Shown here one piece after another: positions 7,509-61,120 of a stretch of 64,000 nucleotides of DNA. The translations under genes were made by a program, and so were the position numbers. Origin of the DNA: an uncultured Myxococcales bacterium (GTDB lineage: Bacteria; Myxococcota_A; Polyangia; Palsa-1104; JAEUJZ01); contig CAZHYV010000003.1 in the NCBI GenBank assembly GCA_964537055.1, positions 25,445 to 89,444 of the forward strand, given 5' to 3'. A model generated the notes under the pieces. It searched no databases. It worked only from the letters and a program-made list of their open reading frames with translations, and had not been told where the DNA came from. Numbering within the stretch: the stretch's first letter is position 1; every line of letters begins with the position of its first letter.

Positions 7509-7544
7509 AAGCGGTAAGCATAGTAGAGAGTTGCAAGCAGTCAA

Positions 7545-11133: not shown

Positions 11134-11277
11134 GAGAGGGGCAAAGTAACATGGGCACACAAGGGTATGCAAGAGGGTGTTTACATCACAGGCAGCAGAC
11201 GAAGATGCCTTTAAGCTGGGCAAGAGAAACGAAGCCTTGTAGCTCGTGTTTTCTTTGGGAGAGGTGAAAGAACAAAC

Positions 11278-13515: not shown

Positions 13516-15981
13516 ATGCATCTATTAAAAATGATGAAAGATTTTTTAACACTTATCCCTTTGGTTGTTCTCTTTTTTACCTGTGAGAAGCCACGGACAG
13601 CGATACATATCCATCTTGAGAATCTCCCTTCTGACGCGAAATCTTTGTACCTGTGTACCGTCGTGAACGGGCAGATAAAGGCAACGATGATAAACTCGTC
13701 TCTCGAAAATTTTACATTGGAGCTTCCTTTGCCCGAGCATTTCTCAGAAACGTTGGACTTCTTCTTTGCCATCGAAGGAGAAGATGGATGCTCAAACACG
13801 ATTGCAGAGCAGCAGATCAAACTAACTGAAGGAATTGGAAAAGCAAGTGTTCCTCTGCACTCTTTGGGGAGTACCCCTGCCTGTCGGCTTGTGGTAGAAA
13901 GGCAAGGGTTAGGAAAGGGCGAAGTGATTGTTACCCCCACTGTAACCAACCCTGTTTGTGGAGGGCAGGTCTACTTCGTCCCTCAAGGGGCACAAGCTAG
14001 CATTGAGGCAAGAACAGGGCCCAATTCACATTTTGCGGGATGGGAAGGTGCCTGCGCAGATAGCTCGACCAGCATCTGCTCTTTAGGAAGGATTGAGAGA
14101 TCTGCCTCGGTGACTGCTCAATTTCATCTGGGAATTTGTACTTCTCCCTCTTTCTGTTGGGAACATCCTCTCCCGCAAGGTCATCCACTCACCTCTGTAT
14201 GGGGACCTCCTAATAAGAATGAAGTTTGGACCGTGGGAAGAAATGGCTTAGTCTTGCGTAAAAACGAAGCGGGATGGGTGTGGATGGATGCTGGGATCAA
14301 GGAAGATCTTGCCTCGATTTCAGGGAGCGATGACACAAATATTTGGGTTGTGGGATCCAGGGGGTTGATTCGCCATTTTAACGGACAAACCTGGGAAGCT
14401 TTGCCAGGCAGTAACGTGACAAACGAATCTTTGCAGGATGTATTTGGGCAATTCCCTGACGTGGTTTGGATGGTAGGGGATAAATCCGCTGTGGTTCGAG
14501 GCACAAAGCTAGACCGAGGTTGGACAGACTGGAAACTGGTCCCACCAAACTTGCTAGCGGCAAAGGATTATAGCCGAATTTTTGGCCTCACGAAAAATGA
14601 AATCTTTGCCACGGATACGACAGGCGAGATCTTTCAGGGAAATGGGCTTGCCTGGGTGATGAATCCCATCGCCACTTGCCCTGGAAAGATACTGGGGCTG
14701 TGGGGTCTGGACCAGTCCGGGATTTCTAAATTGTGGTTGACCGGAGAACAGGGCGCCATCTTCCACGAAACTGGAAAGACCTGTACGCGAGTCGCATCAT
14801 TAGGAGATTCTTCCTTCGTTAGTATTTTTGGGACCTCCGCGGATACAATTTGGGCAGTGGGAGAAAAGGGAACCATTGCTGGGAAGACAGCTGGAACATG
14901 GCAGACGGTAACAAGTCCTGTCAAAACGGCACTTTCCGGAGTTTGGGGTCAAAGCCAACAAGGGTTTTACGCGGTCGGAGACCAAGGCGTGATTCTACAG
15001 AACCAAGGGGGTGCCTGGAAGTATGACGAGGGCACCCAAGACCCTGAGCAAATTTTGCCCAGGGTCTCTTTAAACGCCATTGCTGGATCGGATGAGAAGC
15101 ACCTTCGCATTGTGGGAAATGATGGGTTGATTCTGCATTGGACGGGGATACGATGGCAGATGGAATTGAATCCAGATCCTAACAAGCGTTCTCTCTATGG
15201 TCTTTGGTCGGATGAGAAAGAAGGATTGGCTGTTGGAGATCAAGGGGTGATCCTGCACCGTGAAGAGGGGAAGGGGTGGGAGATAATCGCAAGCCCAAGT
15301 CAAAAGCCTCTTTATGCAATCATTAAGGGAACAAGGGTACAACCGGAAATACCCGTGCTTGATAAAAATGAACATTTTATGACCGCCGGAGAAAAAGATA
15401 CTTATCTTGCCGACAGTCCTCCCAAACCAGCGATTATCTGGAGCAAAAATTTAACTCGAAAGACGGATTGGTCCCAGGTGACTCCCAATAGCTCGCACGA
15501 GCGGTTTTATACTTTGTGGACGGATGGAACTTCTTTTTGTGCAGGCGGAGATACCAGAGCCACCGAGACCAATGTTCTCTGCAGTGGAACGTTTGGCTCA
15601 TCTCCGTTAGCGTTCCAAGACACTCCTGAGAGGCAAACAACTTCGATTTACACTCTTTTTGGGACAGGTCCGTCCGATCTTTGGGCTGCCGGGACGGGGT
15701 ATGTATTTCACCGAAAAGGAGGCAACGGGGGCAGTCCAGCCGATTGGGAGCTGATCAAAACAGCAGCAGGAGAGAAGTACCGAGCTGGGTGTCGCGTTGG
15801 GGATGTAGTTTGGCTTGTCGGAGATCAAGGGATCATCAGGAGGTATGGAATTTCAGGAAAGGTGTGGACTGAAGTCCCAAGCGGAATAACAAGTGATCTC
15901 CACGGCATTTGGTGTAACCAAAAAGGAACGGTCCTTATCGTTGGAGATAAAGGAACCATCTTAAGAAATCGTATTCCCTAA
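13516..15981 (+). CDS. Large secreted/lipoprotein with an InlB-B-like repeat and beta-propeller repeats
   Basis: FAGWEGAC...C...VTAQF motif followed by many W-x-V-G-x-x-G-x-I-x-x-x-x-G-x-x-W repeats. Confidence 0.7.
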   Translation: MHLLKMMKDFLTLIPLVVLFFTCEKPRTAIHIHLENLPSDAKSLYLCTVVNGQIKATMINSSLENFTLELPLPEHFSETLDFFFAIEGEDGCSNTIAEQQIKLTEGIGKASVPLHSLGSTPACRLVVERQGLGKGEVIVTPTVTNPVCGGQVYFVPQGAQASIEARTGPNSHFAGWEGACADSSTSICSLGRIERSASVTAQFHLGICTSPSFCWEHPLPQGHPLTSVWGPPNKNEVWTVGRNGLVLRKNEAGWVWMDAGIKEDLASISGSDDTNIWVVGSRGLIRHFNGQTWEALPGSNVTNESLQDVFGQFPDVVWMVGDKSAVVRGTKLDRGWTDWKLVPPNLLAAKDYSRIFGLTKNEIFATDTTGEIFQGNGLAWVMNPIATCPGKILGLWGLDQSGISKLWLTGEQGAIFHETGKTCTRVASLGDSSFVSIFGTSADTIWAVGEKGTIAGKTAGTWQTVTSPVKTALSGVWGQSQQGFYAVGDQGVILQNQGGAWKYDEGTQDPEQILPRVSLNAIAGSDEKHLRIVGNDGLILHWTGIRWQMELNPDPNKRSLYGLWSDEKEGLAVGDQGVILHREEGKGWEIIASPSQKPLYAIIKGTRVQPEIPVLDKNEHFMTAGEKDTYLADSPPKPAIIWSKNLTRKTDWSQVTPNSSHERFYTLWTDGTSFCAGGDTRATETNVLCSGTFGSSPLAFQDTPERQTTSIYTLFGTGPSDLWAAGTGYVFHRKGGNGGSPADWELIKTAAGEKYRAGCRVGDVVWLVGDQGIIRRYGISGKVWTEVPSGITSDLHGIWCNQKGTVLIVGDKGTILRNRIP

Positions 15982-32616: not shown

Positions 32617-34224
32617 ATGTTGTGGACGGGATGTGATAAGCGCCTGAGTTTTTTACGAAAAATCTTTGGCTTTTTTACCTTGGTTCTGCTTGTTGGCGTT
32701 TTTGGATGCAAACCGGAATCTTCTTTGCAGTGTGGTGGTTTTCCTCTCCCAGATGGGGATGTGGATGCAATAGAGTTATGTACTCAATCTTCCTTCAAAG
32801 AGCAGTGTTGCGCTTTGGCGATGCTTTACAAGACTAGCATGGGTGGTTCGATTTTATATAGCAACAGTTGGCTGAAGTCGAAAGAGATCTGTCAATGGAA
32901 TGGGGTGAGCTGTGATGCTTCCCAAACTCAGATTACCAAACTCACTTTGTTTTTAGATCATGGAGAAAGGATACCCAAGGGATTTTTTCAAGCATTCCCT
33001 TCTTTAGAGGAACTGCTCTTAGAAAATCCGCAGCTTACCATCCTGGAGGATTCCACATTTGCGGGGCTAACTTCTTTAAAGAGACTCAAACTGCATCTGC
33101 CTAGGCTTTCCACCTTACCTAAAAAGATATTTCAGGGACTTTCTTCTCTAAAGCTTCTTGACCTATCAGACAATGGGTTTGAAGAGCTTCCTCCTTCTCT
33201 CCTTTTGGGACTTCCTCTTGAAGAGCTCTCGCTTTACCAAAATCGTCTCCGCAGTTTGCCCGAGGGCTTCCTCTTGAGACAAAGAGTACTAACTCAGGTG
33301 ATCCTTAGTAAAAATTTCCTCTCCAGTCTGCCTGTAGGGTTTTTGCAGGATCTTGTCTCTCTGAATACGCTGGATTTGTCCTTCAATCAACTAGAGTTTT
33401 CCCAAAATGATACCTTTTCCCATACGAAAGAGCTTGAGCGCTTATTCCTGGCAAATAATCAAGTACAACGTCTTCCCTCAGGTTTGTTTCGAGCATTGGG
33501 AAATTTAAAAATCCTTGATCTTTCGCATAATCCTCTTGAGATGATTGAGGAAGGTTCCTTTTTAGGGCTCTATCAACTCAAATCAATGGATCTTTCTCGC
33601 TGTAATTTTTTCCTAGGCATTCCCGCGACCTCCTTTTGGGGTCTTCAGCAGGAGGGAGCTCCTTCTCCGTTAGAAGTCCTTTCTCTGGCAGAAAGTCACC
33701 TTCCTATGCTGTCTCCCAATTTGTTTCTGGGGCTCTCTTCTCTCATGAACCTCGACCTTTCTCAGAACGAGCTTTGGCAGCTATCTTCTAGAGCTTTTTG
33801 GGGTCTACGAGCATTAAAGCAGCTCTCCTTAAGGCAAAACCACCTTGCGTTCTTATCGAGAGACGTGTTTGCCGATTTAATTAATCTCGAGAGGCTTGAT
33901 CTAACAGAAAACCAGATTGTGGATTTACCAAGCAATACATTTTTGCTCCTTCGCTCGCTAAAAAGCCTTAACCTGAGAAAAAACAATATTGATACGTTAC
34001 CTTTTGGGGTCTTTGAGGGCCTTTCTGTGCTTGAGGAGCTTACACTTGATAAAAATAAGCTCACCGGTCTAATGAATGCGGTCCATCCTCAGGCTTTTGA
34101 GCCTTTATTGAAATTAAGTTTTTTATCTATGGAGGAGAATCCTTGGTCTAGTACTTTCAGATTACCCCTATCTCTGTGCCTAAAGCCCTCCTTGCATATC
34201 CAACCGAGCTCGTTGTGCGAGTGA
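32617..34224 (+). CDS. Leucine-rich repeat lipoprotein
   Basis: Lipobox-like VFGC, a CQWNGVSC cap, many LxxLxLxxNxLxxLPxxxF repeats and a terminal NPW. Confidence 0.88.
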   Translation: MLWTGCDKRLSFLRKIFGFFTLVLLVGVFGCKPESSLQCGGFPLPDGDVDAIELCTQSSFKEQCCALAMLYKTSMGGSILYSNSWLKSKEICQWNGVSCDASQTQITKLTLFLDHGERIPKGFFQAFPSLEELLLENPQLTILEDSTFAGLTSLKRLKLHLPRLSTLPKKIFQGLSSLKLLDLSDNGFEELPPSLLLGLPLEELSLYQNRLRSLPEGFLLRQRVLTQVILSKNFLSSLPVGFLQDLVSLNTLDLSFNQLEFSQNDTFSHTKELERLFLANNQVQRLPSGLFRALGNLKILDLSHNPLEMIEEGSFLGLYQLKSMDLSRCNFFLGIPATSFWGLQQEGAPSPLEVLSLAESHLPMLSPNLFLGLSSLMNLDLSQNELWQLSSRAFWGLRALKQLSLRQNHLAFLSRDVFADLINLERLDLTENQIVDLPSNTFLLLRSLKSLNLRKNNIDTLPFGVFEGLSVLEELTLDKNKLTGLMNAVHPQAFEPLLKLSFLSMEENPWSSTFRLPLSLCLKPSLHIQPSSLCE

Positions 34225-34814: not shown

Positions 34815-35465
34815 CTACAGGGTTTTTTGCATCGTCGCTTGATAGGCTTTTGCCACGGATTCTCTTTGGCCTACAAGCTCAAACCAACGCTGAAGATGCG
34901 GAAATTGTTCGATGGTTTGATCGAGTTTCTTATAGACTGCGATCCACGGCCAGCAGGCGATATCTGCAATCGAATAGGCAGAGGCAATATACTCGTTCAG
35001 CTTTACCTGTTGGTCGAGTACCTTAAACAGGCGAGTTACCTCATTAAAGTATCGCTCAATCGCGTACGGAATTTTTTCTTTTGCGTAAAAGCGAAAGTGA
35101 AAATATTGACCCGCCATGGGACCAAGTCCGCTTACTTGCCACATTAGCCATTTTTCTACCTCATACCGATAGTGGAGGTCACGGGGATAAAATTTCCCTG
35201 TTTTTTCGGCAAGGTATTTTAGGATTGCCCCGGATTCAAAAAGCGACAGGGGTCCCCCTGGCGCCTGGTGATCCACAAGAGCAGGAATTTTGTTATTTGG
35301 GCTGATAGCCATAAATTCTGGCGAGAGTTGCTCCCCATTACTAATATCGATTGGAATGGCCCGATAGGGGAGCTTGCACTCCTCTAACATGAGGGCAATT
35401 TTGGCTCCATTAGGAGTTGACCAGTAATAAAAATCCATCGGAGCTATTGTTTTTTGGGGTTCCAT
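34815..35465 (-). CDS. yfcG: Glutathione S-transferase family, YfcG-like disulfide oxidoreductase
   Basis: WSTPNGAKIALMLEE, ISPNNKIPAL, FESGAIL and WQVSGLGPMAGQ motifs. Start is 35465 or 35438. Confidence 0.88.
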   Translation of the reverse strand: MEPQKTIAPMDFYYWSTPNGAKIALMLEECKLPYRAIPIDISNGEQLSPEFMAISPNNKIPALVDHQAPGGPLSLFESGAILKYLAEKTGKFYPRDLHYRYEVEKWLMWQVSGLGPMAGQYFHFRFYAKEKIPYAIERYFNEVTRLFKVLDQQVKLNEYIASAYSIADIACWPWIAVYKKLDQTIEQFPHLQRWFELVGQRESVAKAYQATMQKTL

Positions 35466-35520
35466 CTTTTGGGATTCCACGAGTTCCTCATTTCCTGGAG
35501 CACGTACTTTGTTTCCTGGA

Positions 35521-36237
35521 TCATATACTTTTTTGGGAGACGACAATAAAAAAACCACCAAGGCGGCGTAACCCAGGAACGTCGGCGGCGTGAGTTTCTA
35601 AAAAACGAAACATAGGTCCCACTACAGGCCACCTATGGATTTGTGAAAAAGGGGTAAAAATCCGGACGCCCCGACACGTTTTTATGTCCATTGAGCTTGG
35701 CAGATAAGAACGAATCTCTTCCAGCGTATCATACCGAGTATAGACAGACTCATCGTGAGTTTGATCAGAGATGGCGGTTGGCTTCTTGAGTTTTTTAATA
35801 AGACCCCGAAGCGAGTAGGGGTTGTAGAATTCGGTAATGAGCCACCCCCCTGGTTTTAGGACGCGCACAAGCTCTTCCATAGCTGTTTGGATGGGATTTA
35901 CGTGAGCAAGCACTTTAAATGAACATACGATATCGAAACTTTCGCTCGCAAAGGGAACCGACAAAGCATTGGCTTGTACGACCTGTAAGTTTCGCTCTTT
36001 GGCTTTCCTTAGCATCCCGTGAGAAAGATCAAACCCAACAGCATGCGCTGCTTTTTCTTTCAGGGAGCGTAGAATAAGACCAGTTCCACAACCTGCTTCT
36101 AGCACTCGCATGTGAGGCTGCAGATACTTAGAGACGAGGCTTACTTCCAGATGATCGATCAGTGCATGATACCCATCGTGACGTTCTCGCTCGTACGTTT
36201 TTGAAAATTCGTCGTAATAACTTTGATTGTCTTTCAT
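35521..36237 (-). CDS. Class I SAM-dependent methyltransferase
   Basis: VLEAGCGTG, GFDLSHGML, ALSVPFASESFD and RVLKPGG motifs. Confidence 0.92.
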   Translation of the reverse strand: MKDNQSYYDEFSKTYERERHDGYHALIDHLEVSLVSKYLQPHMRVLEAGCGTGLILRSLKEKAAHAVGFDLSHGMLRKAKERNLQVVQANALSVPFASESFDIVCSFKVLAHVNPIQTAMEELVRVLKPGGWLITEFYNPYSLRGLIKKLKKPTAISDQTHDESVYTRYDTLEEIRSYLPSSMDIKTCRGVRIFTPFSQIHRWPVVGPMFRFLETHAADVPGLRRLGGFFIVVSQKSI

Positions 36238-36266: not shown

Positions 36267-37190
36267 TTAGGAAGGACGTCGGTAGGCAGACGGCTTGTAG
36301 AGATTTGCCTGCCGCTTCTGTTTTCCCTCTAACAGGGATCGTTTTGATTCCTCGATAAACGCTTCCAGGGTCATTGTAGGTTTATAAGTGGCTACTCCGA
36401 TAGAGACTGTAATTTTCATCTCGATCTGTTCCCGAAGCGTAAAAGAAGTGCGCTCGATGCGTTTCTGTAAATTTTCTGCAAGATCAGATGCTTTTTTTGC
36501 TTGTGTGTTCGGGAGATAAATGAGGAAACCATCGTCCCAATCAGCCATAATATCTGTAGAACGCACCCGTTCACTAAGATACTTTGCCACTTTTTGAAAA
36601 AAGGCCTGAAGCTCTAGGGATTGTAGCTGCTGACATATCTCCTCAAATCGGTCAATCTTCACCTGTAAGAGAGATAGAGAGCAGAGGGAAACAAAAGAAG
36701 CATCTTTTTTCCGTCTATTCAAAAGTTTGCGATATTTTTCAATCTCCCATTCTAGCAGATGCTTCAGGTAGCTTGATTGATAGATACCAGTAAGCATATT
36801 TTTTTGAGTGAACCTATAGAGCTCTGTCGAGATTTTTGATGGCTTGAGTTTCTCGGTGCCGAACTCAAAAGCAAACCTGCCTATCTGGGTCATTTCCTTA
36901 TTCTCGGGAGATTGTTTTTGTGTGATGATCCCGTGGACTCGTGTACCCGTATGGCTTGCTAAATCTTCCCAAGAGAAATAGCCATGTCGAAATAAGATCT
37001 GAAAGGTGGGCTTTTTGATGGAAGGCTCTGCTTTTGGAAAGGTCTCTTCAGGCAAATGTCCGATACGAACCCCTTGGGTGGATACTTCATAGTGACAAGC
37101 ATTTCTAGATAGAGTGGGATCGGCTGAGTGAGAAACAATTAAAAATGAATTTACCGAGTCTTCGTCAGGATTGTCGATAAGAATTTGCAT
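36267..37190 (-). CDS. FHA-like plus degenerate GGDEF domain protein
   Basis: NMLTGIYQ, KIDRF, RSTD I-site, ADWDDGF in place of ARYGGEEF, and ITVSIGVATY. Confidence 0.72.
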   Translation of the reverse strand: MQILIDNPDEDSVNSFLIVSHSADPTLSRNACHYEVSTQGVRIGHLPEETFPKAEPSIKKPTFQILFRHGYFSWEDLASHTGTRVHGIITQKQSPENKEMTQIGRFAFEFGTEKLKPSKISTELYRFTQKNMLTGIYQSSYLKHLLEWEIEKYRKLLNRRKKDASFVSLCSLSLLQVKIDRFEEICQQLQSLELQAFFQKVAKYLSERVRSTDIMADWDDGFLIYLPNTQAKKASDLAENLQKRIERTSFTLREQIEMKITVSIGVATYKPTMTLEAFIEESKRSLLEGKQKRQANLYKPSAYRRPS

Positions 37191-51858: not shown

Positions 51859-51985
51859 GGGTAGGAACTAGCCATAGCTTGGGCTTTGCTGTCAAGTTGG
51901 AACGAAAAAAGTTTCTTCTGTGACAATGAATATTTCAGAAAATACAAATCCTTGCTATAGAGGGGATCCGACATAAAGGATCATT

Positions 51986-52861
51986 ATGAGCATAGGCGCA
52001 GCATTTTTGGTAACAGTCCTGATTCCTCCGGGAGACCATCATGATTTAGGAAGGAGGTATCTCCTGGCTCCTGATGGGACGACCTTGGGAAATAGTGCGG
52101 AGGCAGATATTTTACTTCGGCTGGATTCATCAACTCCTTGCCATGTGCGGTTGAGGCAAGAGGACGACTCTTGGTACCTTGTAGATTTGGCAGAATTTAG
52201 TGGGGCTTATATCAATGGGCTCATTGTCCAAAATAGTCAGATTTTCGACGGAGATATCTTACAAATTGGTTCCCTGGGTTTCGAATTTTGTTCAGGAACT
52301 GGTATCAAAATAGGTTACTTTGAACAAATCGAGCACCTCTTACAGGAGGATTTTCTCACGCGTGCTTATAATCGAAGTTTTTCGATGAATCTTCTTCAAC
52401 TTGAGGTAAGTCGATACAATCGATGGCTGACGGATGAAAAAGATCCCTTCTCTCCAAGGAGGCCCAACCCGATTTCACTCATTTTTATAGATACAGATAA
52501 CTTTGGAATGATTAACAAAAAGTATGGGCATGCTGTAGGGGATGGCGTGTTACGAGAAATGGTACGTCGTGTCAAACTAGGTCTTCGACCTACAGACATT
52601 ATTGCTCGATACGGAGGTGAAGAATTTGTGGTTGTTCTTTTGGATACACCCTTAGATTATGCAAAAGAGACAGCGGAAGAAATTCGACAATCTATTGCAA
52701 ATACACCTTTTCTTGTGGATGAGCAACGGGCAGTTGAGATGACCGTTTCCTGCGGAGTTTCTGAATTGGAAGCAGGCATGGATGCAAATGCCCTGGTCCA
52801 ATCTGCCGACGCAAAAATGAGATTAGCAAAGAATCAGGGAAAAAACCGGATTGTTGTTTGA
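51986..52861 (+). CDS. FHA-GGDEF diguanylate cyclase
   Basis: N-terminal FHA-like region, DFLTRAYNR, NKKYGHAVGD, RPTD I-site and intact ARYGGEEF. Confidence 0.92.
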   Translation: MSIGAAFLVTVLIPPGDHHDLGRRYLLAPDGTTLGNSAEADILLRLDSSTPCHVRLRQEDDSWYLVDLAEFSGAYINGLIVQNSQIFDGDILQIGSLGFEFCSGTGIKIGYFEQIEHLLQEDFLTRAYNRSFSMNLLQLEVSRYNRWLTDEKDPFSPRRPNPISLIFIDTDNFGMINKKYGHAVGDGVLREMVRRVKLGLRPTDIIARYGGEEFVVVLLDTPLDYAKETAEEIRQSIANTPFLVDEQRAVEMTVSCGVSELEAGMDANALVQSADAKMRLAKNQGKNRIVV

Positions 52862-52913
52862 TTATTCTTAACGAAGGTCTTATCAGGATAAATAGAGAAA
52901 AGAGGCAGATTTT

Positions 52914-53906
52914 ATGCAAATCAATGGCTGGCGAGCCCCAGATTACAACCATATTGACCTAACTCAGCAGATTGCCCAGCAGTTTTCAAGGCCTGAGGGA
53001 GGTTCCATTGATCAATCGTTTCATTATATCGACCCTTATGGGGCCTCAGAGTGGTATTCTATTTGTCGTCAGTCTCATTATCTATCCATGTTTGACAATC
53101 TACCGGTTGATTGGCCTGACTGGCTGGCAAAAATTGTACTGCATCATATAAAGCAAACCTCTTTCCACCCAGGCAAGGTAGATGTCGTTGGCTTGGGGGT
53201 GGGGGATGGGCAGAAAGAAACGCTGGTCTGTAGTGGACTTTACCGAGCCAGCGCATGGCAGCGGTTACGATGTTTTTTGGTTGATCTGAGTCCTGCCTTG
53301 TTAACCGAAGCCCATACTCACTTTGTTGATACATTTACAGATAAGAGGAATGTAGAGTCAAAATGGATTTTGGGAGATTTTCATCAACTTCCCAAATACA
53401 AAGAATTGTTTGCTGATCCAGTCGATGCCCATGTAATACGAATTGCTACCATGTTTGGGGAAACCCTGGCCAATCTACGGAATGAGAGAGATTTTATTCA
53501 ACATAGCTTAAAAGCGTTTAAACCGGGCGACTTGCTTATTGTCGATGTGGCTTTAGGATTTGCGCCTCACGATCGTCCTGATCTTATCCAGAAAGCAGAT
53601 CCCTTTTTCCAATCAACGACAGTGAAAGATTGGATGATTCGAAGCTTAAAACGGAATCGTCCTGGCGTTCGAGAGATTCAACTTGAGATGCTGGTGAAGC
53701 ACGGCCTCTCTGCATTTCCAAATGCATATACGATTGAGATTCAGGCAACGGCTGATCAAAGATCCGTGTTTTCCCTTTTACAGCAGCACCGTTACGTTGC
53801 AGACGATTTTGTAAAAACTTTTATGTCATTAGGATGGAGACCTTTGGAAGGTAGACAATATGGCTATCTGAAGCGACAGCTCATTTATATTTTTGCGAAA
53901 AAATAA
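52914..53906 (+). CDS. EgtD-like (Methyltransf_33 fold) SAM-dependent methyltransferase, paralogue 1
   Basis: GLGVGDGQKE, CFLVDLS, GDF, FGETLAN and PGDLLIVDV motifs. Confidence 0.7.
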   Translation: MQINGWRAPDYNHIDLTQQIAQQFSRPEGGSIDQSFHYIDPYGASEWYSICRQSHYLSMFDNLPVDWPDWLAKIVLHHIKQTSFHPGKVDVVGLGVGDGQKETLVCSGLYRASAWQRLRCFLVDLSPALLTEAHTHFVDTFTDKRNVESKWILGDFHQLPKYKELFADPVDAHVIRIATMFGETLANLRNERDFIQHSLKAFKPGDLLIVDVALGFAPHDRPDLIQKADPFFQSTTVKDWMIRSLKRNRPGVREIQLEMLVKHGLSAFPNAYTIEIQATADQRSVFSLLQQHRYVADDFVKTFMSLGWRPLEGRQYGYLKRQLIYIFAKK

Positions 53907-53927
53907 ACTCGTCTAAAAAGGAAAGGA

Positions 53928-54923
53928 ATGGCCATGCAAATCAAAACGTTACAAGATCCAAATTACGACTACAAACAATTGCTCGAAAAAGGAAAACAGC
54001 AATGTTCTAACCCAAAAGGGGGAATTGTAGAGCAATCCTTTTTTTATCTTGATCCCCTAAGTGCAAAAGCATGGAGTGGGATATCACACCGGTCAAAGTA
54101 CATATCGACGTTTGATAATCTTACCTTGGATTGGCCGGAATGGATCACACAGACCATTTTGCAGCAAATTCAAACTTCGGGGTTTGACCCAAACAAAGTA
54201 GACGTGATTGGCTTAGGGATGGGAGATGGCTATAAAGAATTGTTATTATCACGAGGATTGGACAGAACAAACCAATTTCATCAGCTCCGCTGTTTTTTGC
54301 TAGATCTGAGCCCTGAACTTGTCAAAGAGTCTCAGAAGAGCTTTGAGAAAGAGTTCGCCGGAAGGCCTCACGTCCAAGCCATTGGATACCTGGGGGATTT
54401 CCACCATTTATCCGAGTATAAAGATATCTTCTATCGCCCTGAAGATCAAAATATACTACGGGTTGGCACAATGTTTGGAACCTTAGTTTCGCTAAGGACA
54501 GAAAAGCAATTTATCGAAGAATGTTCAAAGGCATTTAAACCAAAAGATCTGTTGCTGATTGATGTATCCCTAGGGTTTGCCCCCCACGACCGCCCGGATT
54601 TGATTCAAGAAAAGGACCCTTTCTTTCAGGGACAAAGCAGCATCGAATGGATTGGGGAAGTATTCCGGCGCTATCATAATCCTTCAGCAGACATACGGTT
54701 TGACTTTTCTGTGAAGCAAGGTGAGTCTATCTTTCCAAACACCTATACTTTGGAAATTCAGGCAATCACTGAGGAACAAACGAAATTTTCTTTATTCCAA
54801 AGGCACCGATACAGTGCTAAGGAGTTTATAGAAACATTTGCAGAGTTAGGTTGGAAGCCGCTCCAAGGGAGGCAGTATGGTTATGACAACCGGCAGCTCA
54901 TCTATATTTTTGCAAAGGACTAA
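53928..54923 (+). CDS. EgtD-like SAM-dependent methyltransferase, paralogue 2
   Basis: GLGMGDGYKE, CFLLDLS, GDF and DLLLIDV; collinear with paralogue 1. Confidence 0.7.
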   Translation: MAMQIKTLQDPNYDYKQLLEKGKQQCSNPKGGIVEQSFFYLDPLSAKAWSGISHRSKYISTFDNLTLDWPEWITQTILQQIQTSGFDPNKVDVIGLGMGDGYKELLLSRGLDRTNQFHQLRCFLLDLSPELVKESQKSFEKEFAGRPHVQAIGYLGDFHHLSEYKDIFYRPEDQNILRVGTMFGTLVSLRTEKQFIEECSKAFKPKDLLLIDVSLGFAPHDRPDLIQEKDPFFQGQSSIEWIGEVFRRYHNPSADIRFDFSVKQGESIFPNTYTLEIQAITEEQTKFSLFQRHRYSAKEFIETFAELGWKPLQGRQYGYDNRQLIYIFAKD

Positions 54924-54949
54924 AGCTTACGAAAGGGAGTTACAAAGAT

Positions 54950-55939
54950 ATGCAAGCAAATGGCTGGCGAGCCCCAGATTATAATCAGCTGCTTCTGACT
55001 CGGGATATCAAACACCAGTTTTCTGCACCCAAAGGAGGAGCGATTGACGTAGCTTGCTTTTTTGTAGATCCCTATGGAGCTGCAGATTGGTGTTCTGCTG
55101 CCCAAGAAGATAGATATCTCTCTACGTTTGAGGTGCCTCCTGATTGGATTTTTTGGATTGCAGGGCTTATCTCTCGCCATCTCAAAGATACCTATTTTCT
55201 TCAAGACCAAATTGATGTCATTGGGCTAGGTGCGGGAGATGGCCGCAAAGAGACCGCTTTGTGTGATGGGCTTTTACAGACAAACGTTTTTCAAAAATTG
55301 CGATGCTTCTTTGTCGATATTAGTCCTACTTTGGCAATAGAGTCCCATGGACATTTCGTTCAATACTTCGGAGAGAGTCCTCTGGTGGAATCGAATTGGA
55401 TCTTAGGAAACTTTTTCCATCTCCCTCGGTACACCAATTTATTTTACAATCCAGATGATGTAAATCGGCTGCGAGTCGGATGTGTGCTAGGAGGAATCTT
55501 TGGGGTCATTCTTCATGAGGTGGGTCTTATTGAACAGAGTCTACGGGCATTTAAAACAGGAGACCTTGTCATTGTAGATGTCTGCCTAGGATTTGCGCCT
55601 CCCGATCAGAAAGAATTAATTCAAAAGCAAGACCCTTCGTTTAATACAACTCATGGGCTCAAATGGATTGCGGGCGTGATCCGAAGAAACCGTCCCGACT
55701 TGTCTAGTTTGCGATTTCAGTATGAAGTAAAACGGGGGCTTTCTACCATACCAGACACGTATACGATTGAAACCCTGGCAACCATTGATGAACAAGCGGT
55801 CTTTTCTGTATACCGCAAACACCGGTATTCCAAAGAGGGACTGCTTGGAACTTTTGCGAAATTAGGGTGGCGTCTTTTAGAGAGCAAGCACTACGGACGA
55901 GACGACCGTCAGCTGATTTCTGTGTTTGTTAAAGAATAG
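54950..55939 (+). CDS. EgtD-like SAM-dependent methyltransferase, paralogue 3
   Basis: GLGAGDGRKE, CFFVDIS, GNF and GDLVIVDV; collinear with paralogues 1 and 2. Confidence 0.7.
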   Translation: MQANGWRAPDYNQLLLTRDIKHQFSAPKGGAIDVACFFVDPYGAADWCSAAQEDRYLSTFEVPPDWIFWIAGLISRHLKDTYFLQDQIDVIGLGAGDGRKETALCDGLLQTNVFQKLRCFFVDISPTLAIESHGHFVQYFGESPLVESNWILGNFFHLPRYTNLFYNPDDVNRLRVGCVLGGIFGVILHEVGLIEQSLRAFKTGDLVIVDVCLGFAPPDQKELIQKQDPSFNTTHGLKWIAGVIRRNRPDLSSLRFQYEVKRGLSTIPDTYTIETLATIDEQAVFSVYRKHRYSKEGLLGTFAKLGWRLLESKHYGRDDRQLISVFVKE

Positions 55940-57540: not shown

Positions 57541-58566
57541 TTAGCAGACTGTCTGAAGACGTTTTTCTATTAATGCAGGCGTAATGAACACAGTCTGCCC
57601 TTTTAGCTCCGGAGCCTCAAACATAATGTCATGGCATACCTCCTCCAAAAGAGCTCGAAGGCCTCTAGCGCCAATATGTTTTTGCAAAGCATGACGGGCA
57701 AGGCTGCGTAGTGCTTCATCCTCAAATTGAAGATGAACTCCGTCTAGCTCAAGAAGAGCTTGATACTCACGGATCAAAGAATCTGGGGGCTCGATCAGAA
57801 TCTCTACCAGCTGGTCCTCTGTAAGTGGATCAAGTTGAACTCGATTCGGGAACCTCCCGAGGAATTCTGGGAGAAGCCCATATTCTTGGAGCTCCTTAAT
57901 TTCAATGGACTTCCCTCGGATGGGAGACTGGTTCCCAAATCCTGGAGGGACGCGAGTAGACGCTTGTTTTAGATTCCCAAACGTGCCTGCTGCGACAAAG
58001 AGGATGTCACTGGTATCCAGTTGGATTAGCTCCTGTTTGGTCCATTGCTGTGTTAAATTGGTGGGAACCAACACTTCTCTCCCCTCTAGTAGCTTGAGCA
58101 GGGCTTGTTGGACTCCTTCGCCACCAATATCCCGAAATCCAGTCATCTGGACTCCTTGCGACCGGCTTGCAATTTTATCAATTTCATCGATGAAAATAAT
58201 ACCACGTTGTGCTTCTTCAAGGGAGTGATGGGCCTTATGCAAAAGCTCGGCTACCATTACCTCGACATCTTTTCCATGATAACCGGCCTGGGTGTAGTCA
58301 GTCGCATCCGTGATGCAAAAGGGGACTTGCAAAAACTCGGCAAGCTTTTGGGCAAGGTAGGTTTTCCCACAACCCGTAGGGCCCATTAAGAGCAGGTTTG
58401 CCTTTTTGATCAACTTACGTTTTGTCTTAGGAAGCCCACATCGTTTTAAATGGTTATAGGCAGCAATCGCTAAGGCTCGTTTGGCCTGAGACTGACCAAT
58501 GATATACTCGTTTAAGTAAGAGAAAATCTCCCTTGGGGTGGGAAGCCGTCGTTCCATCGGGAGCAT
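57541..58566 (-). CDS. clpX: ClpX-like AAA+ unfoldase lacking the N-terminal zinc-binding domain
   Basis: IIGQSQAKRAL, KANLLLMGPTGCGKT, IIFIDEIDK, GEGVQQALLKLLEG, GLLPEFLGR and GARGLR. Start about 58566-58584, since the longer ORF overlaps the PBP gene. Confidence 0.85.
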   Translation of the reverse strand: MLPMERRLPTPREIFSYLNEYIIGQSQAKRALAIAAYNHLKRCGLPKTKRKLIKKANLLLMGPTGCGKTYLAQKLAEFLQVPFCITDATDYTQAGYHGKDVEVMVAELLHKAHHSLEEAQRGIIFIDEIDKIASRSQGVQMTGFRDIGGEGVQQALLKLLEGREVLVPTNLTQQWTKQELIQLDTSDILFVAAGTFGNLKQASTRVPPGFGNQSPIRGKSIEIKELQEYGLLPEFLGRFPNRVQLDPLTEDQLVEILIEPPDSLIREYQALLELDGVHLQFEDEALRSLARHALQKHIGARGLRALLEEVCHDIMFEAPELKGQTVFITPALIEKRLQTVC

Positions 58567-58690
58567 TCTGGGGGGTGATCTCATAGAAGCTACTGTACTT
58601 AAGACGTCTTTACTTTGCAAACCCCCTTCGCTTGGAGAGAAGACCCACAGCTTGATTTTTCCGCCTGCTTTTGGTACGTAGGTAGAAACT

Positions 58691-61120
58691 ATGGCTGCCT
58701 TGAAATCCCGCAATTCGATCAAATCCAAATCAAGACGCAGATCAAAACGTCCCCTTCTTGTCAGAATCTTAGGATGGAGCATGGGGATCGCCTTTTTGGG
58801 AGGGATTTCAGTCGTTCTCGGTCTGGCTGGTTTGTTCTATTATTATATTTCTGATCCGGCACTTCCAAAAATCGACCGAGTCGAAGATTATCGTTCCACC
58901 GCAAAGGTAACGACCCGAATTCTTGATAGAAATGGCCAGCTTATTGGAGAGCTATTCGAAGAGCGGAGAACGGTCGTTCCTTTTAAAGAAATTCCTCCGT
59001 CTCTTCTGCATGCAATTGTGGATGCTGAGGATGCACAATTCTTTGTGCATAAAGGTTTGAATTATTGGGGAATTTTGCGGGCCATCTTAAACAACCTTCG
59101 ACCTGGGGCCCATTGGCAGGGAGCCTCTAGCCTGACCCAGCAACTCGTCAAAAATTATATTTTGCGAAATAGCGAGAAAACGCTAAGGCGAAAATTCCAG
59201 GAAATGTATTTGGCCATTCGGCTCGAGCAAAAATTGCAAAAAAATGACATCCTCTGGATTTACTTAAATCAAATCTCCTTTGGTCACCAACGGTTTGGGG
59301 TGGAAGAAGCGGCGCAGTACTACTTTGGAAAGCCGGTACGTGAACTCAACCTTGCTGAATCGGCGGTGATTGCCAGCCTTCCGAAGGCGCCCGAAGATTT
59401 TTCCAGGCGCCTCGAACGGCTACAGGATCGGAAGCGCTATGTGCTTTCACAAATGGTTCGATACGGACACGCATCCGAAAAAGAGGCCAAACAAGCGGCA
59501 GAGATGCCGATTGAGTTTGTGAAAGAGAATGATCCCTCTTCTCTGGCACCCGAGTTTATCGATGAGGTCGAGGCGCAGCTATTAAAAAGGTACAGCCGCG
59601 CAGAGATACCCTATTTAGGGATGACGATCCGAACAACCTGTGATCTCAATCTACAAAAAGTAGCTCGCGACGCCTTAGAGCACGGGCTTCAAAAGATGGA
59701 CGAGCGAAATCATTACCGAGAGAAAATCCGTCATCTTGAAGGAAGAGCGCTTACCAGCTTCTTAAAGAATCTGACGGAAGAATATCCCGAGGGTCCTAAG
59801 CTAAATCGGGTGCTCGAAGGGGTGATCAAGCAGTTGCTCGATGGCGATGGAGAATCTGGTGCAGGCGCGGTGATTGATTTTGGAAAAACCACAGGGTGGC
59901 TTCCTCTCCCTAAGACCAAAAGTCGATATAATCCTAAGATGCTCCTACCTAGCCAGAGGTTTGCCCTAGGCGACGTAGTTCGAGTTCGGGTGATTGATGA
60001 GGGGAAAGAAGGCCTTATTTTAGCGCTCGAGCAAGGGCCCCAAGGGGCCGTGGTGGTGATTGATCCGCAGACGAGGCATGTGCTTGCCATGGTAGGGGGC
60101 TATGAGTACCGCCGAAAGCAGTACAACCGAGCGATTCGTGCCCTGCGTCAGCCTGGCTCAGCGTTTAAGCCAGTCTTGTATGCAGCCGCCTTTCAGAGCA
60201 AGGAGTATACGCCAGCCAGCTTGCTTGATGATTCGCCACAAATCTTCGAGCGTCCCAATGCACCTCCTTGGATCCCTCGAAACGCCGAAGAAGGAGAGTA
60301 CCTAGGGCCTGTGCGTTTGCGTGTGGCCTTAGCAAAATCTCTCAATACCATCGCTGCACAGCTGATTTACGCGCTAGGGCCCGAGACGGTCATCCGCATG
60401 GGACACCTTTTGGGCATTGAATCTAGATTGGAAAAGATCTCTTCCAGTGGAGAGGTAACCCCCGAAGACAATTTAACATTGGCTCTAGGGACTTCGGAGG
60501 TGAACTTATTAGAATTAACGAATACCTATTCTACCTTTGCTGCCTTAGGAAGAAAGGCTTCTCCTCTTTTTATCATCCAGGTGGGGGATGAACCTCCCGC
60601 TCGGGCAGAGATGGAGCAGGCTATTTCCCCAGAACTTGCATTTCAGATGAACTCCCTTTTGCAAAGCGTCGTAGAAGAAGGAACCGCACGTTCGATTAAA
60701 GATAAATTCAAGCGACCTGTCTCGGGAAAGACGGGGACGACCAATACAGTCAAGGATGCATGGTTTTTGGGGTATACTCCTGAAATTGTGACAGGGGTGT
60801 GGATCGGCTTTGATCAAGCCAGGCCCTTGGGCCGTAAGGAATCGGGTGCAAAGTCTGCGCTTCCCATTTGGGCAGAGGTCATGCAGACGGCTCTCCGGGG
60901 GAGACCCATCCAAATGTATGCTCCTCCGCCCGGTGTTATCACGGTCAAGATTGACCCTAAAACAGGCAAAGTGGCCCCTCCTGGAGGACCCTCCATAGAA
61001 GAGGTATTTTTATCGGGAACAGAGCCTGTAGAACAAGCTTCTCCCGTAGAGATATCTGGGGGAGATTCAGGGTCATTTACAGACTCCAAATATACAAAAC
61101 CTACTTTTGATTCAGAGTAG
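58691..61120 (+). CDS. mrcA: Class A penicillin-binding protein 1A
   Basis: Transglycosylase motifs (EDAQF, GASSLTQQ, RKFQE) and transpeptidase motifs (SAFK, SLN, KTG). Confidence 0.95.
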   Translation: MAALKSRNSIKSKSRRRSKRPLLVRILGWSMGIAFLGGISVVLGLAGLFYYYISDPALPKIDRVEDYRSTAKVTTRILDRNGQLIGELFEERRTVVPFKEIPPSLLHAIVDAEDAQFFVHKGLNYWGILRAILNNLRPGAHWQGASSLTQQLVKNYILRNSEKTLRRKFQEMYLAIRLEQKLQKNDILWIYLNQISFGHQRFGVEEAAQYYFGKPVRELNLAESAVIASLPKAPEDFSRRLERLQDRKRYVLSQMVRYGHASEKEAKQAAEMPIEFVKENDPSSLAPEFIDEVEAQLLKRYSRAEIPYLGMTIRTTCDLNLQKVARDALEHGLQKMDERNHYREKIRHLEGRALTSFLKNLTEEYPEGPKLNRVLEGVIKQLLDGDGESGAGAVIDFGKTTGWLPLPKTKSRYNPKMLLPSQRFALGDVVRVRVIDEGKEGLILALEQGPQGAVVVIDPQTRHVLAMVGGYEYRRKQYNRAIRALRQPGSAFKPVLYAAAFQSKEYTPASLLDDSPQIFERPNAPPWIPRNAEEGEYLGPVRLRVALAKSLNTIAAQLIYALGPETVIRMGHLLGIESRLEKISSSGEVTPEDNLTLALGTSEVNLLELTNTYSTFAALGRKASPLFIIQVGDEPPARAEMEQAISPELAFQMNSLLQSVVEEGTARSIKDKFKRPVSGKTGTTNTVKDAWFLGYTPEIVTGVWIGFDQARPLGRKESGAKSALPIWAEVMQTALRGRPIQMYAPPPGVITVKIDPKTGKVAPPGGPSIEEVFLSGTEPVEQASPVEISGGDSGSFTDSKYTKPTFDSE

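Follow-up and report, generated by a model that had tools for sequence, protein, structure and literature searches.

EgtD is the histidine N-alpha-trimethyltransferase of ergothioneine biosynthesis. Degenerate GGDEF proteins of the PopA and PelD type keep their I-site and act as c-di-GMP receptors. In Bdellovibrio bacteriovorus, the FHA-GGDEF cyclase DgcB (Bd0742) is switched on by its own phosphorylated N-terminal tail (PMC6733907). The locus described here joins a gene for a DgcB-like protein to three genes for EgtD-like proteins.

The window, by which we mean the whole 64,000-nucleotide stretch of DNA analysed, comes from an uncultured freshwater bacterium. The FHA-GGDEF gene (51986-52861, forward strand, 291 aa) is followed on the same strand by MT1 (52914-53906, 330 aa), MT2 (53928-54923, 331 aa) and MT3 (54950-55939, 329 aa). 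The gaps of 52, 21 and 26 bp are exactly those reported in an earlier note on this DNA, which had been made from the sequence alone and which described three collinear reading frames behind an intact FHA-GGDEF gene. MT2 and MT3 are 50% and 48% identical to MT1, and the mutual identity of the three proteins is 48-50%. Each of the four genes is preceded by its own Shine-Dalgarno sequence. That of the cyclase gene, AAAGGA, is located 7 nt 5' of the ATG, at the end of the intergenic region (51859-51985, forward strand) common to this gene and a divergent AAA_28 gene. No match to the sigma-70 consensus was found in this region, in which the operon promoter presumably lies. The gaps between the four genes contain no terminator-like sites, and a convergent outer-membrane beta-barrel gene begins 16 bp past MT3, so that the operon ends there. 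Judged by its layout, the array is a four-gene operon-like unit.

The triple array is not an assembly artefact, because it is found in independent contigs and its copies share almost no similarity at the DNA level. A Logan contig of independent origin matches with 100% identity over 8,425 bp, and contigs from a second sample span the MT2/MT3 junction and the junction of MT3 with the downstream sequence. Three tandem copies occur in the window genome and in one close relative. The neighborhood of the array consists of housekeeping genes (MurA, ClpX, PBP1), no GC anomaly is seen at the array, and no transporter gene adjoins it.

The first protein of the array consists of an FHA-fold N-terminal domain (Pfam E 4.6e-8, 33.8 bits with a cut-off of 20.7), a linker and a GGDEF domain (E 4.7e-34), in which the GGEEF motif is intact and the RxxD I-site reads RPTD. 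Its sole full-length match in the PDB is DgcB (6hbz; E 3e-23, residues 9-290), which has the same domain order, GGEEF motif and RxxD I-site. The protein is thus apparently an active diguanylate cyclase of the DgcB type. Both motifs are present in 13 of 14 examined members of its clade.

The resemblance to DgcB does not extend to the part of the molecule that would recognize a phosphorylated tail. R61, K72, S75, R76, T96 and N97 of DgcB are all replaced, by N36, D47, T50, P51, F71 and S72, respectively, and the DgcB tail of about 31 residues carrying the phospho-acceptor Thr is absent. The earlier note regarded the cyclase as phospho-Thr-sensing. This is not plausible because the FHA domain lacks the phospho-Thr pocket residues that DgcB and generic FHA-GGDEF proteins keep. 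These residues (G-R, S-R-x-H, T-N) are missing in all 14 clade members examined, for eight of which the linkage to a methyltransferase gene was verified, and in none of the 11 generic FHA-GGDEF controls. The N-terminus is about 21 residues long in the clade, compared to 34-64 residues in the controls. Loss of the pocket and of the tail is, in this comparison, specific to the methyltransferase-linked clade. The remodelled pocket is only weakly conserved within the clade: 10 of 14 members have Asn in place of R61, 8 of 14 have Pro in place of R76, and the other positions vary. Simple decay fits this pattern no worse than a new specific ligand site does.

The three proteins downstream of the cyclase have no match in Pfam, NCBIfam or the PDB sequences, even at E<=10, and the Methyltransf_33 HMM, which the earlier note had put forward as a check, fails to detect any of them. 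The EgtD fold claimed by that note therefore finds no support in the sequence databases, but it is confirmed by structure prediction and profile-profile comparison, which are the sole basis of the label. The AlphaFold (AF2) model of MT1 has a pLDDT of 95.9 and a pTM of 0.93. The best 15 Foldseek matches to this model are all EgtD, with E values of 4e-17 to 4e-15 and TM scores of 0.61-0.67, and the folds that follow have TM scores below 0.5. Alignment to the EgtD family by hhalign gives 94.9%, rising to 98.9% (E 2e-16, full length) when a bridging Methyltransf_33 sequence is added; PF10017 is reached from MT1-3 only via distant relatives. MT1-3 are SAM-binding, methyltransferase-like proteins with the EgtD fold and belong to a rare family that is unannotated and sister to Methyltransf_33.

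Comparison with EgtD itself (Methyltransf_33, PF10017; PDB 4pim, 4uy6, 7scf) reveals the same two-domain fold (E 4e-17, TM about 0.65) at a sequence identity of about 14%; a beta-hairpin (EgtD residues 259-277) is missing from the MT1 model. The SAM core is the same, and MT1, MT2 and MT3 all contain the GLGxGDGxKE and (V/L)D(L/I)S motifs, as had been noticed earlier. Both the family consensus and MT1 retain the residues that hold the C-alpha, carboxylate and alpha-amino groups of the substrate in EgtD (Tyr39, Tyr56, Thr163 and Asn166), together with the SAM-holding residues. Among 139 family members, the equivalents of Y39, T163 and N166 are conserved in 134, 131 and 119, and the SAM-ribose Asp in 133; the Tyr56 equivalent is Tyr in 81 and Phe in 13. 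The side-chain end of the pocket is different. Glu282, which binds imidazole in EgtD, is replaced by F, A, G, L or W across the family and by Leu, Phe and Tyr in MT1, MT2 and MT3, at a position that, like the rest of the C-terminal half of the pocket (Tyr206, Ser284), is mapped with moderate or low confidence. The suggested comparison of the histidine pockets thus gives a divided answer: the residues that bind the backbone are retained, but the Glu that binds imidazole has become hydrophobic. From this combination we infer that MT1-3 are not histidine methyltransferases.

That these proteins are nevertheless diverged EgtD enzymes making hercynine, with egtB elsewhere in the genome, is hardly credible. 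EgtD is the closest fold, and the NCBI name 'L-histidine N(alpha)-methyltransferase' is attached to some distant relatives fused to a helix-turn-helix (HTH) domain. However, apart from the changed Glu282 position, PF10017 and NCBIfam give no match at any threshold, and no gene with the EgtB-type domains (FGE-sulfatase, DinB_2) is present among the roughly 40 larger reading frames of the window that were scanned, which agrees with the earlier statement that ergothioneine genes are missing. Family genes are never found with egt genes; they are linked to the cyclase, as in every informative stand-alone locus, or are HTH-fused.

Unlike EgtD, the gene is triplicated in the window, with two copies that look eroded. 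Only MT1 retains the acceptor pocket at the mapped positions. It keeps all confidently mapped pocket residues (Y38, W47, Y56, T184 and N187, corresponding to the N-terminal half of EgtD) and the SAM core (G95, G97, E102, D124, D155). In MT2 the SAM core is intact, but the G-x-T-x-x-N loop has a one-residue deletion, Ser replaces Asn at the equivalent of the alpha-amino-group binder N166, and 9 of 45 conserved columns deviate from the family consensus. MT3, the most diverged copy, also has an intact SAM core and is changed at four conserved positions of the pocket (Q34V, Y38F, T184I and N187V), with 12 of 45 columns off consensus; it may be non-catalytic or retargeted. The paralogues do differ in their substrate-side residues, as claimed, but the proposed functional diversification is only half right, as MT1 keeps its mapped pocket and the changes in MT2, and above all in MT3, look like erosion and not like retuning.

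The linkage of the methyltransferase genes to the cyclase gene is real, and the synteny comparison called for in the earlier note bears it out. A stand-alone homologue and a cyclase-clade partner occur together in all 10 informative loci, which are short metagenomic contigs from six samples, none of them from a cultured organism. Starting from the methyltransferase, all 8 loci whose flank could be read (the window, L002, L004, L005, L006, L007, L045 and L047) have an adjoining partner on the same strand, and starting from the partner, a methyltransferase is found in 2 of 2 (L048 and L049). The conserved module is a cyclase with one to three EgtD-like copies. Its gene order is reversed once, in L047, and the remaining neighbors differ from locus to locus, leaving the pair as the sole conserved unit. 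The partner cyclases are merely 33-58% identical, so the association is old. The constant presence of an EgtD-like gene is a further difference from DgcB, and pairing of such a gene with DgcB or any other FHA-GGDEF gene was not found in the literature searched.

By combining these observations, it is possible to propose how the module might work. In the reading that we favor, and to which we assign an even chance of being right, a non-histidine N-methylating enzyme works with the cyclase and most likely supplies its input. The methyltransferases would methylate the amino nitrogen of an amino-acid-like compound other than histidine, probably a hydrophobic or aromatic one, and would have no part in ergothioneine synthesis. 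The cyclase and the methyltransferase would then act together, the activating input coming most likely from the methyltransferase, either as its methylated product or by direct docking on the remodelled FHA domain. This input would replace the role that the phosphorylated tail has in DgcB. MT2 and MT3 would be regulatory or retargeted copies. If this is true, the c-di-GMP output reports SAM and amino-acid methylation status. Information could flow from the methyltransferase to the cyclase or from c-di-GMP to the methyltransferase, or the genes could be merely co-expressed.

The EgtD-like domain does not need a cyclase, since the majority of the family consists of HTH fusions, near which no cyclase is found. 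In a set of 185,579 reference genomes the family is practically missing. Its majority form, found in wastewater and soil metagenomes, is a protein of about 500 residues in which an N-terminal DNA-binding XRE-HTH domain precedes an EgtD-like domain in which the same pocket and SAM residues are conserved. These relatives are 25-31% identical to MT1, and a profile of the paralogues matches them with E values as low as 1e-62. A POT/MFS transporter gene lies immediately downstream in 24 of 31 of their loci, and serine recombinase genes often adjoin them. In L048 and L049 the module has an MFS_1 transporter gene immediately upstream, which in L049 shares 8 bp with the cyclase gene. The transporters in both groups of loci point to a small-molecule theme.

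The fusions lend themselves to a different interpretation: the EgtD-like proteins might be sensors, that is, regulatory subunits that bind SAM/SAH and/or an amino acid without catalysis and control the GGDEF domain through an FHA-like docking domain, so that an input domain fused to an XRE-HTH in most relatives is here encoded separately. Of the best 150 family representatives, 90 are XRE-HTH fusions, a classic layout of input and output; MT2 and MT3 lack pocket residues and still have the SAM site, as expected of pseudo-enzymes; and an FHA domain without its phospho-Thr pocket needs another kind of partner. On the other hand, the full SAM site and residues relevant to catalysis are kept family-wide, including the amine-positioning Asn166 equivalent (119/139), and the conserved adjoining transporters suggest that a metabolite is made or moved. 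Catalytic enzymes fused to transcription factors are also well known (BirA, PutA, Ada), and such a fusion is compatible with catalysis. On balance, we consider a purely sensory role rather unlikely.

The serine recombinases beside the fusions, the baseplate, Mu Gp45-like and Tox-REase-2 genes around L048, and weak precomputed Cas10-Cmr2_palm2 matches on some partners might together hint at a defence or conflict system on mobile DNA, in which infection would prompt a GGDEF/Cas10-palm-like protein to make a nucleotide signal, with the methyltransferases as effectors or modifiers. This is very improbable. None of the four proteins has a significant PADLOC match, the window locus has the housekeeping surroundings and even GC content described above, and GGEEF with RxxD is the signature of ordinary c-di-GMP synthases.

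A second module is positioned 15 kb away on the reverse strand. The gene at 36267-37190 encodes a degenerate paralogue of the cyclase (Pfam GGDEF E 2e-16). It is a full-length member of the same FHA-GGDEF clade, matched at positions 10-289 by a local HMM of the partner family (E 1.3e-48), and is 26% identical to the product of 51986-52861. Located 29 bp downstream on the same strand (35521-36237) is the gene for a class-I SAM methyltransferase (Methyltransf_11, Pfam E 1.3e-25), which has no specific NCBIfam equivalog. Its PDB matches are generic small-molecule methyltransferases, and it is unrelated to the EgtD-like family.

Two unrelated methyltransferase families thus adjoin members of one cyclase clade, as might be expected if the EgtD-like enzymes methylated a protein amine, such as a side chain or the N-terminal alpha-amino group of the cyclase. 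Methylation would be a covalent switch in place of phosphorylation, either read by the FHA-GGDEF protein or imposed on it. In DgcB the switch is a modification of the protein's own N-terminal tail (PMC6733907); in the linked clade the N-terminus is short and different, and the FHA pocket is de-cationised. Retention of the carboxylate-binding Tyr56 equivalent in most family members (Tyr in 81, Phe in 13 of 139), however, points to a free amino acid and away from a peptide N-terminus, and an HTH-fused majority beside transporters fits poorly with a dedicated protein substrate, making this mechanism quite improbable.

It is also unlikely, if somewhat less so, that the genes are only co-expressed: a methylated amino-acid derivative, for example a secondary metabolite or a compatible solute of the betaine type, would be made and the cyclase merely co-regulated, or c-di-GMP would act downstream, for example on a transporter. 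EgtD-type chemistry leads to betaines, MFS and POT transporters recur beside both clades, and an interaction surface or c-di-GMP-binding motif remains hypothetical. Yet the pair alone is conserved across 10 loci with unrelated neighbors and survives a swap of gene order, the loss of the phospho-Thr pocket and tail is confined to the linked clade, and the second clade member in the window again adjoins a SAM methyltransferase gene.

In this second member the catalytic motif ARYGGEEF is destroyed, reading ADWDDGF, and the metal and substrate motifs upstream of it are gone as well, but the RxxD I-site is kept (RSTD). As GGEEF is lost and the I-site retained, the product of 36267-37190 is a candidate receptor for c-di-GMP and not a candidate cyclase. 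It resembles the PopA/PelD type in both respects and differs from it in having an FHA-like N-terminal domain and in adjoining a SAM methyltransferase gene. The latter gene overlaps by 41 bp with a gene for a GST-fold glutathione-dependent disulfide oxidoreductase (34815-35561).

The window cyclase (51986-52861, + strand), a 291-aa protein with FHA (Pfam E 4.6e-8, above the cut-off) and GGDEF (E 4.7e-34) domains, is followed on the same strand by three methyltransferase-like genes. MT1 (52914-53906, +; 330 aa) begins 52 bp after the cyclase gene, MT2 (53928-54923, +; 331 aa) 21 bp after MT1, and MT3 (54950-55939, +; 329 aa) 26 bp after MT2. The coordinates and spacings of these four ORFs are exactly those reported in the earlier note, and the SAM-binding motifs GLGxGDGxKE and (V/L)D(L/I)S, which it had described, are indeed common to all three MT proteins. 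The pairwise identity of MT1-3 is 48-50%. Each of the four genes is preceded by a Shine-Dalgarno sequence, no terminator-like hairpin was found in the three intergenic gaps of the array, and a convergent outer-membrane beta-barrel gene starts 16 bp past MT3. The three-copy array is genuine, because an independent Logan contig is 100% identical to the array region across 8,425 bp, the junctions between the MT copies are bridged by contigs of a second sample, and the similarity among MT1-3 at the DNA level is almost nil, leaving little to mislead an assembler.

The earlier note assigned MT1-3 the fold of EgtD, the histidine N-alpha-trimethyltransferase, and proposed a search against the Methyltransf_33 model (PF10017) as a check. 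This check fails, as MT1-3 match neither PF10017 nor any other model in Pfam, nor NCBIfam, nor PDB sequences, even at E<=10. A few distant relatives of the HTH-fused form (XRE-HTH plus EgtD-like domain) reach PF10017 at 33-43 bits, its gathering score being 23 bits, over the N-terminal 180 of the 304 model positions, which correspond to the Rossmann half. When 5.8 billion proteins were searched with MT1 by word seeding, the window's own proteins came back and nothing else; a 48-sequence profile run against 5.8 billion proteins retrieved at least nine. An exhaustive search with a profile, covering 1.84 billion cluster representatives, gave 518 matches at E<=1e-3, 92 of them at E<=1e-30. These 518 family representatives stand for clusters at 50% identity and are metagenomic almost throughout; an N-terminal XRE-type HTH, scored by a local HMM, is present in 90 of the best 150. 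One homologous protein, P0010 (746 aa), contains two tandem EgtD-like stretches in a single polypeptide, in effect a fusion of what the arrays encode as neighbouring genes.

The fold itself is borne out. The family profile finds EgtD in the PDB weakly (E 8.6e-4). The AlphaFold (AF2) model of MT1 has a pLDDT of 95.9 and a pTM of 0.93, and EgtD accounts for all of its best 15 Foldseek matches (E 4e-17 to 4e-15, TM 0.61-0.67), generic class-I methyltransferases having a TM below 0.5. With hhalign, the family aligns to EgtD locally over MT1 residues 6-212 (94.9%), and over the full length (98.9%, E 2e-16) when a genuine Methyltransf_33 member encoded by a Verrucomicrobiia MAG is added as a bridge sequence. 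AF2, Foldseek and the full-length alignment thus agree on the two-domain architecture of EgtD, consisting of a Rossmann SAM domain and a substrate-binding domain. As there is no match in the HMM libraries, yet structure and hhalign agree on EgtD, MT1-3 are, on the modelled fold, an EgtD-fold sister family outside the current HMM libraries. With a pocket that reads as that of an N-methyltransferase for amino acids other than histidine, such a family would extend betaine-type chemistry in bacteria beyond what is known.

The substrate-pocket residues of EgtD were taken from PMC8593015, and the EgtD sequence used for mapping was validated against 4pim and 4uy5. By the criteria of the GxGxG motif I, an acidic residue after beta-2 and the D/N of motif III, the SAM residues G95, G97, D124 and D/N155 are found in MT1-3 and in 96% or more of the family members; the SAM core is intact in all three proteins, and the SAM-ribose Asp is kept in 133 of 139 outside members. 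In the confidently mapped half of the pocket, EgtD residues correspond to those of MT1 as follows: Y39 to Y38, F47 to W47, Y56 to Y56, G161 to G182, T163 to T184 and N166 to N187. The backbone-binding equivalents of Y39, Y56, T163 and N166 are all present in MT1; the mapping of Y206 and S284 is unreliable. Among the 139 outside members, the equivalent of Y39 is conserved in 134, that of T163 in 131 and that of N166 in 119, and the Y56 equivalent is Tyr in 81 and Phe in 13.

The three copies depart from the family to different extents. MT1 differs at 7 of 45 conserved columns, with no mapped pocket residue among them. MT2 differs at 9, including N187S, by which the N166 equivalent is lost, and a one-residue loop deletion. 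MT3 differs at 12, including Q34V, Y38F, T184I and N187V, so that the equivalents of Tyr39 and of the pocket Thr and Asn are lost. At the level of aligned residues, the acceptor pocket is eroded in MT2 and MT3 in a graded fashion. The EgtD-like proteins could be non-catalytic sensor subunits, a doubtful possibility that nevertheless deserves attention; the eroded pockets of MT2 and MT3 speak for it, and the backbone-binding residues conserved across the family, the N166 equivalent included, speak against it.

In EgtD, Glu282 makes a hydrogen bond to the imidazole and is the basis of histidine specificity. The position aligned with it, a mapping of moderate confidence anchored on the R293-Y294 and G307 motifs, is Leu in MT1, Phe in MT2 and Tyr in MT3, and F, A, G, L or W across the family. 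The global bridge alignment is usable for Glu282 and Ser284 and not usable for Tyr206. A histidine-specific role of MT1-3 was rejected, since at this moderate confidence the Glu282 position is hydrophobic and in no copy acidic. The pocket reads as that of a putative N-methyltransferase for an amino-acid-like, non-histidine substrate. No EgtB-type protein (FGE-sulfatase, DinB_2) was found among the approximately 40 larger ORFs of the window that were scanned, in keeping with the earlier statement that egtB is missing from the window, and none was found in the related loci. Although MT1-3 share with EgtD the fold and the SAM residues, and MT1 also the mapped backbone residues, they are without a PF10017 match, the histidine-specific Glu or egt neighbours, and it is hardly conceivable that these proteins are canonical EgtD.

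The FHA domain of the window cyclase scores 33.8 bits against a Pfam cut-off of 20.7 and aligns with the FHA domains of DgcB and GarA. DgcB, the FHA-GGDEF cyclase of Bdellovibrio bacteriovorus (6hbz), is the sole full-length relative of the window cyclase in the PDB (E 3e-23), and the two share the FHA-linker-GGDEF order, the GGEEF motif and the RxxD I-site. GGEEF and RxxD are kept in 13 of the 14 members of the cyclase clade, the FHA-GGDEF proteins related to the window cyclase, from which cyclase activity and product inhibition would be expected.

The ligand cleft is different. In DgcB, residues R61, K72, S75, R76, H78, T96 and N97 of the FHA cleft bind the protein's own phosphorylated N-terminal tail (PMC6733907). 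The same positions in the window cyclase are occupied by N36, D47, T50, P51, H53, F71 and S72, and the G-R position reads LGNS, not LGRRY, in the DgcB alignment. In a joint alignment, the G-R, S-R-x-H and T-N residues are missing in all 14 clade members, whereas each of the 11 generic FHA-GGDEF controls has them. N-terminal to the reference FHA column, clade members have about 21 residues, compared with 41 in DgcB and 34-64 in the generic controls; the window cyclase begins nearly at the first FHA strand and has no phospho-acceptor tail. With both the pThr pocket and the phospho-tail missing, its earlier description as a phospho-Thr-sensing cyclase is not borne out. The altered cleft is conserved in part only (among the 14 members, the R61 position is Asn in 10 and the R76 position Pro in 8), and for this reason two readings of the aligned residues stand: the cleft may be a new ligand site, or it may have simply decayed. 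The clade represents a natural experiment on the FHA domain, in which DgcB-like proteins lost pThr recognition where they are tied to a methyltransferase. The module resembles a DgcB-type cyclase joined to an EgtD-type enzyme, each half lacking features that define its namesake.

Loci for comparison were contigs encoding the closest outside homologues of MT1-3 with a readable flank. In seven such metagenomic contigs (L002, L004, L005, L006, L007, L045 and L047), a cyclase-clade gene adjoins a methyltransferase-like gene on the same strand, the gene order being reversed in L047. The reverse search started from the cyclase side, with the pair of closest orthologues on the longest contigs (L048 and L049), and in both a methyltransferase-like gene follows the cyclase. 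The synteny with an FHA-GGDEF gene, on which the earlier idea of a signalling-linked module depended, holds in all 10 informative loci, the window's included, which derive from six samples. The gene pair is solid, conserved and previously unannotated, and its lineage is unsampled. The remaining neighbours vary by locus, with MurA and ClpX in the window and YchF, FG-GAP, GrpE-DnaJ, MFS or baseplate genes elsewhere; mere co-expression with a betaine or secondary-metabolite pathway, to be considered beside this varied setting, is rather unlikely. A defence system is very improbable, as PADLOC-DB 2.0 gave no significant match, the sole match being MT2 at E 0.0065 (13.6 bits).

Three of these contigs have features of their own. 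The cyclase gene L002:289-732, partner of the closest outside homologue (P0003), lacks an internal segment covering the GGDEF core (residues ~142-230 of the window cyclase) and may be a pseudogene or an assembly error. In L048 (1-7900 and 10085-10843), an MFS-cyclase-methyltransferase unit lies between Baseplate_J, a 932-aa Tox-REase-2 protein and a Phage_Mu_Gp45-like gene, a setting that looks like a contractile-injection-system or prophage-like neighbourhood. The contig L003 (SRR1027651, 1-1780) bears three tandem EgtD-like copies in a second organism, namely a cut copy, P0004 and another cut copy. As the first fragment matches MT1 best and the third matches MT3 best, the gene was probably triplicated before the two organisms diverged.

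The HTH-fused relatives are set apart in a midpoint-rooted NJ tree, in which the cyclase-linked clade is not cleanly monophyletic. Their loci (L010-L039) are contigs of JGI wastewater and soil metagenomes. No cyclase was found near the HTH-fused form in 31 JGI loci; a POT/MFS transporter lies directly downstream of the HTH-fused gene in 24 of the 31, and a large serine recombinase upstream in 13. This arrangement suggests a mobile cassette of regulator/enzyme and transporter. A single conserved transporter for both clades was rejected because the flanking MFS genes have no detectable BLAST homology to each other. The JGI scan yielded chiefly the HTH-fused form and no further cyclase-linked loci. 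A contig scan of 185,579 species-representative genomes with the three-paralogue alignment found nothing, and a 10-sequence alignment found in the same genomes a single distant Verrucomicrobiia Methyltransf_33 protein; the cassette is therefore absent from these species representatives at the sensitivity used.

A second module is found 15 kb upstream of the array. It contains a full-length paralogue of the cyclase clade (36267-37190, - strand; local HMM E 1.3e-48), in which GGEEF is destroyed and RxxD kept. A class-I SAM methyltransferase gene (Methyltransf_11; 35521-36237, -), unrelated to MT1-3, lies 29 bp downstream and overlaps by 41 bp the gene of a GST-fold GSH-dependent disulfide oxidoreductase (34815-35561, -). 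No specific assignment was found for the Methyltransf_11 protein, and comparison with NCBIfam and the PDB does not support a glycine/sarcosine N-methyltransferase.

The identity of the parts, the conservation of their pairing, the pThr pocket lost from the paired clade, the non-histidine pocket and the graded erosion of MT2 and MT3 are established; how the module works is inferred. In the favoured account, the substrate that the MT proteins N-methylate would be a compound of amino-acid type, hydrophobic or aromatic. The input of the cyclase would come from the methyltransferase, either through the methylated product or through docking of the enzyme on the FHA-like domain, and would stand in for the phospho-tail of DgcB. 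In its most specific form, which is unlikely to be correct, the proposal is that the FHA cleft, devoid of the cationic pThr residues, has been re-purposed to read an N-methylated (quaternary-ammonium) ligand. This ligand, a product of the EgtD-like enzyme, would be either the betaine of a free amino acid or a methylated peptide. A DgcB-type cyclase would thereby be switched by methylation in place of phosphorylation; the triplicate would comprise one catalytic and two regulatory or retargeted copies, and the degenerate GGDEF protein with its Methyltransf_11 partner would be a second, receptor-type version of this scheme. Protein methylation of the cyclase, another alternative, is quite improbable.

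Both halves of the module belong to well-studied superfamilies, and the combination is undescribed in the literature searched: in full-text searches, no paper was found to connect EgtD-like proteins to GGDEF or FHA-GGDEF genes. Should the input come from the methyltransferase or from its product, the module would represent a new route for SAM and amino-acid information into c-di-GMP signalling and a re-use of the FHA fold to bind a non-phospho ligand. Four small soluble proteins would suffice for a direct test.

The host belongs to a diderm lineage that has been sampled very sparsely: the window encodes BamA, OmpA and TolQ, and at 90% identity its ClpX, its RNR large subunit and an ABC ATPase each remain singletons in a set of 15 billion proteins. 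Four large ORFs (4124-5404, 6336-7544, 10057-11223 and 13516-15981; 388-821 aa) match nothing in Pfam at E<=1e-5. The gene at 32617-34224 (+) encodes a 535-aa protein made nearly entirely of leucine-rich repeats (LRR_8, E 8e-60); proteins rich in such repeats are more typical of host-associated or predatory bacteria. In the ClpX orthologue (57541-58782, -), ClpX models match from residue 77 on and the N-terminal zinc finger is not reported. As this ORF overlaps the divergent PBP1 ORF call (58691-61120), the true start of ClpX is probably further downstream.
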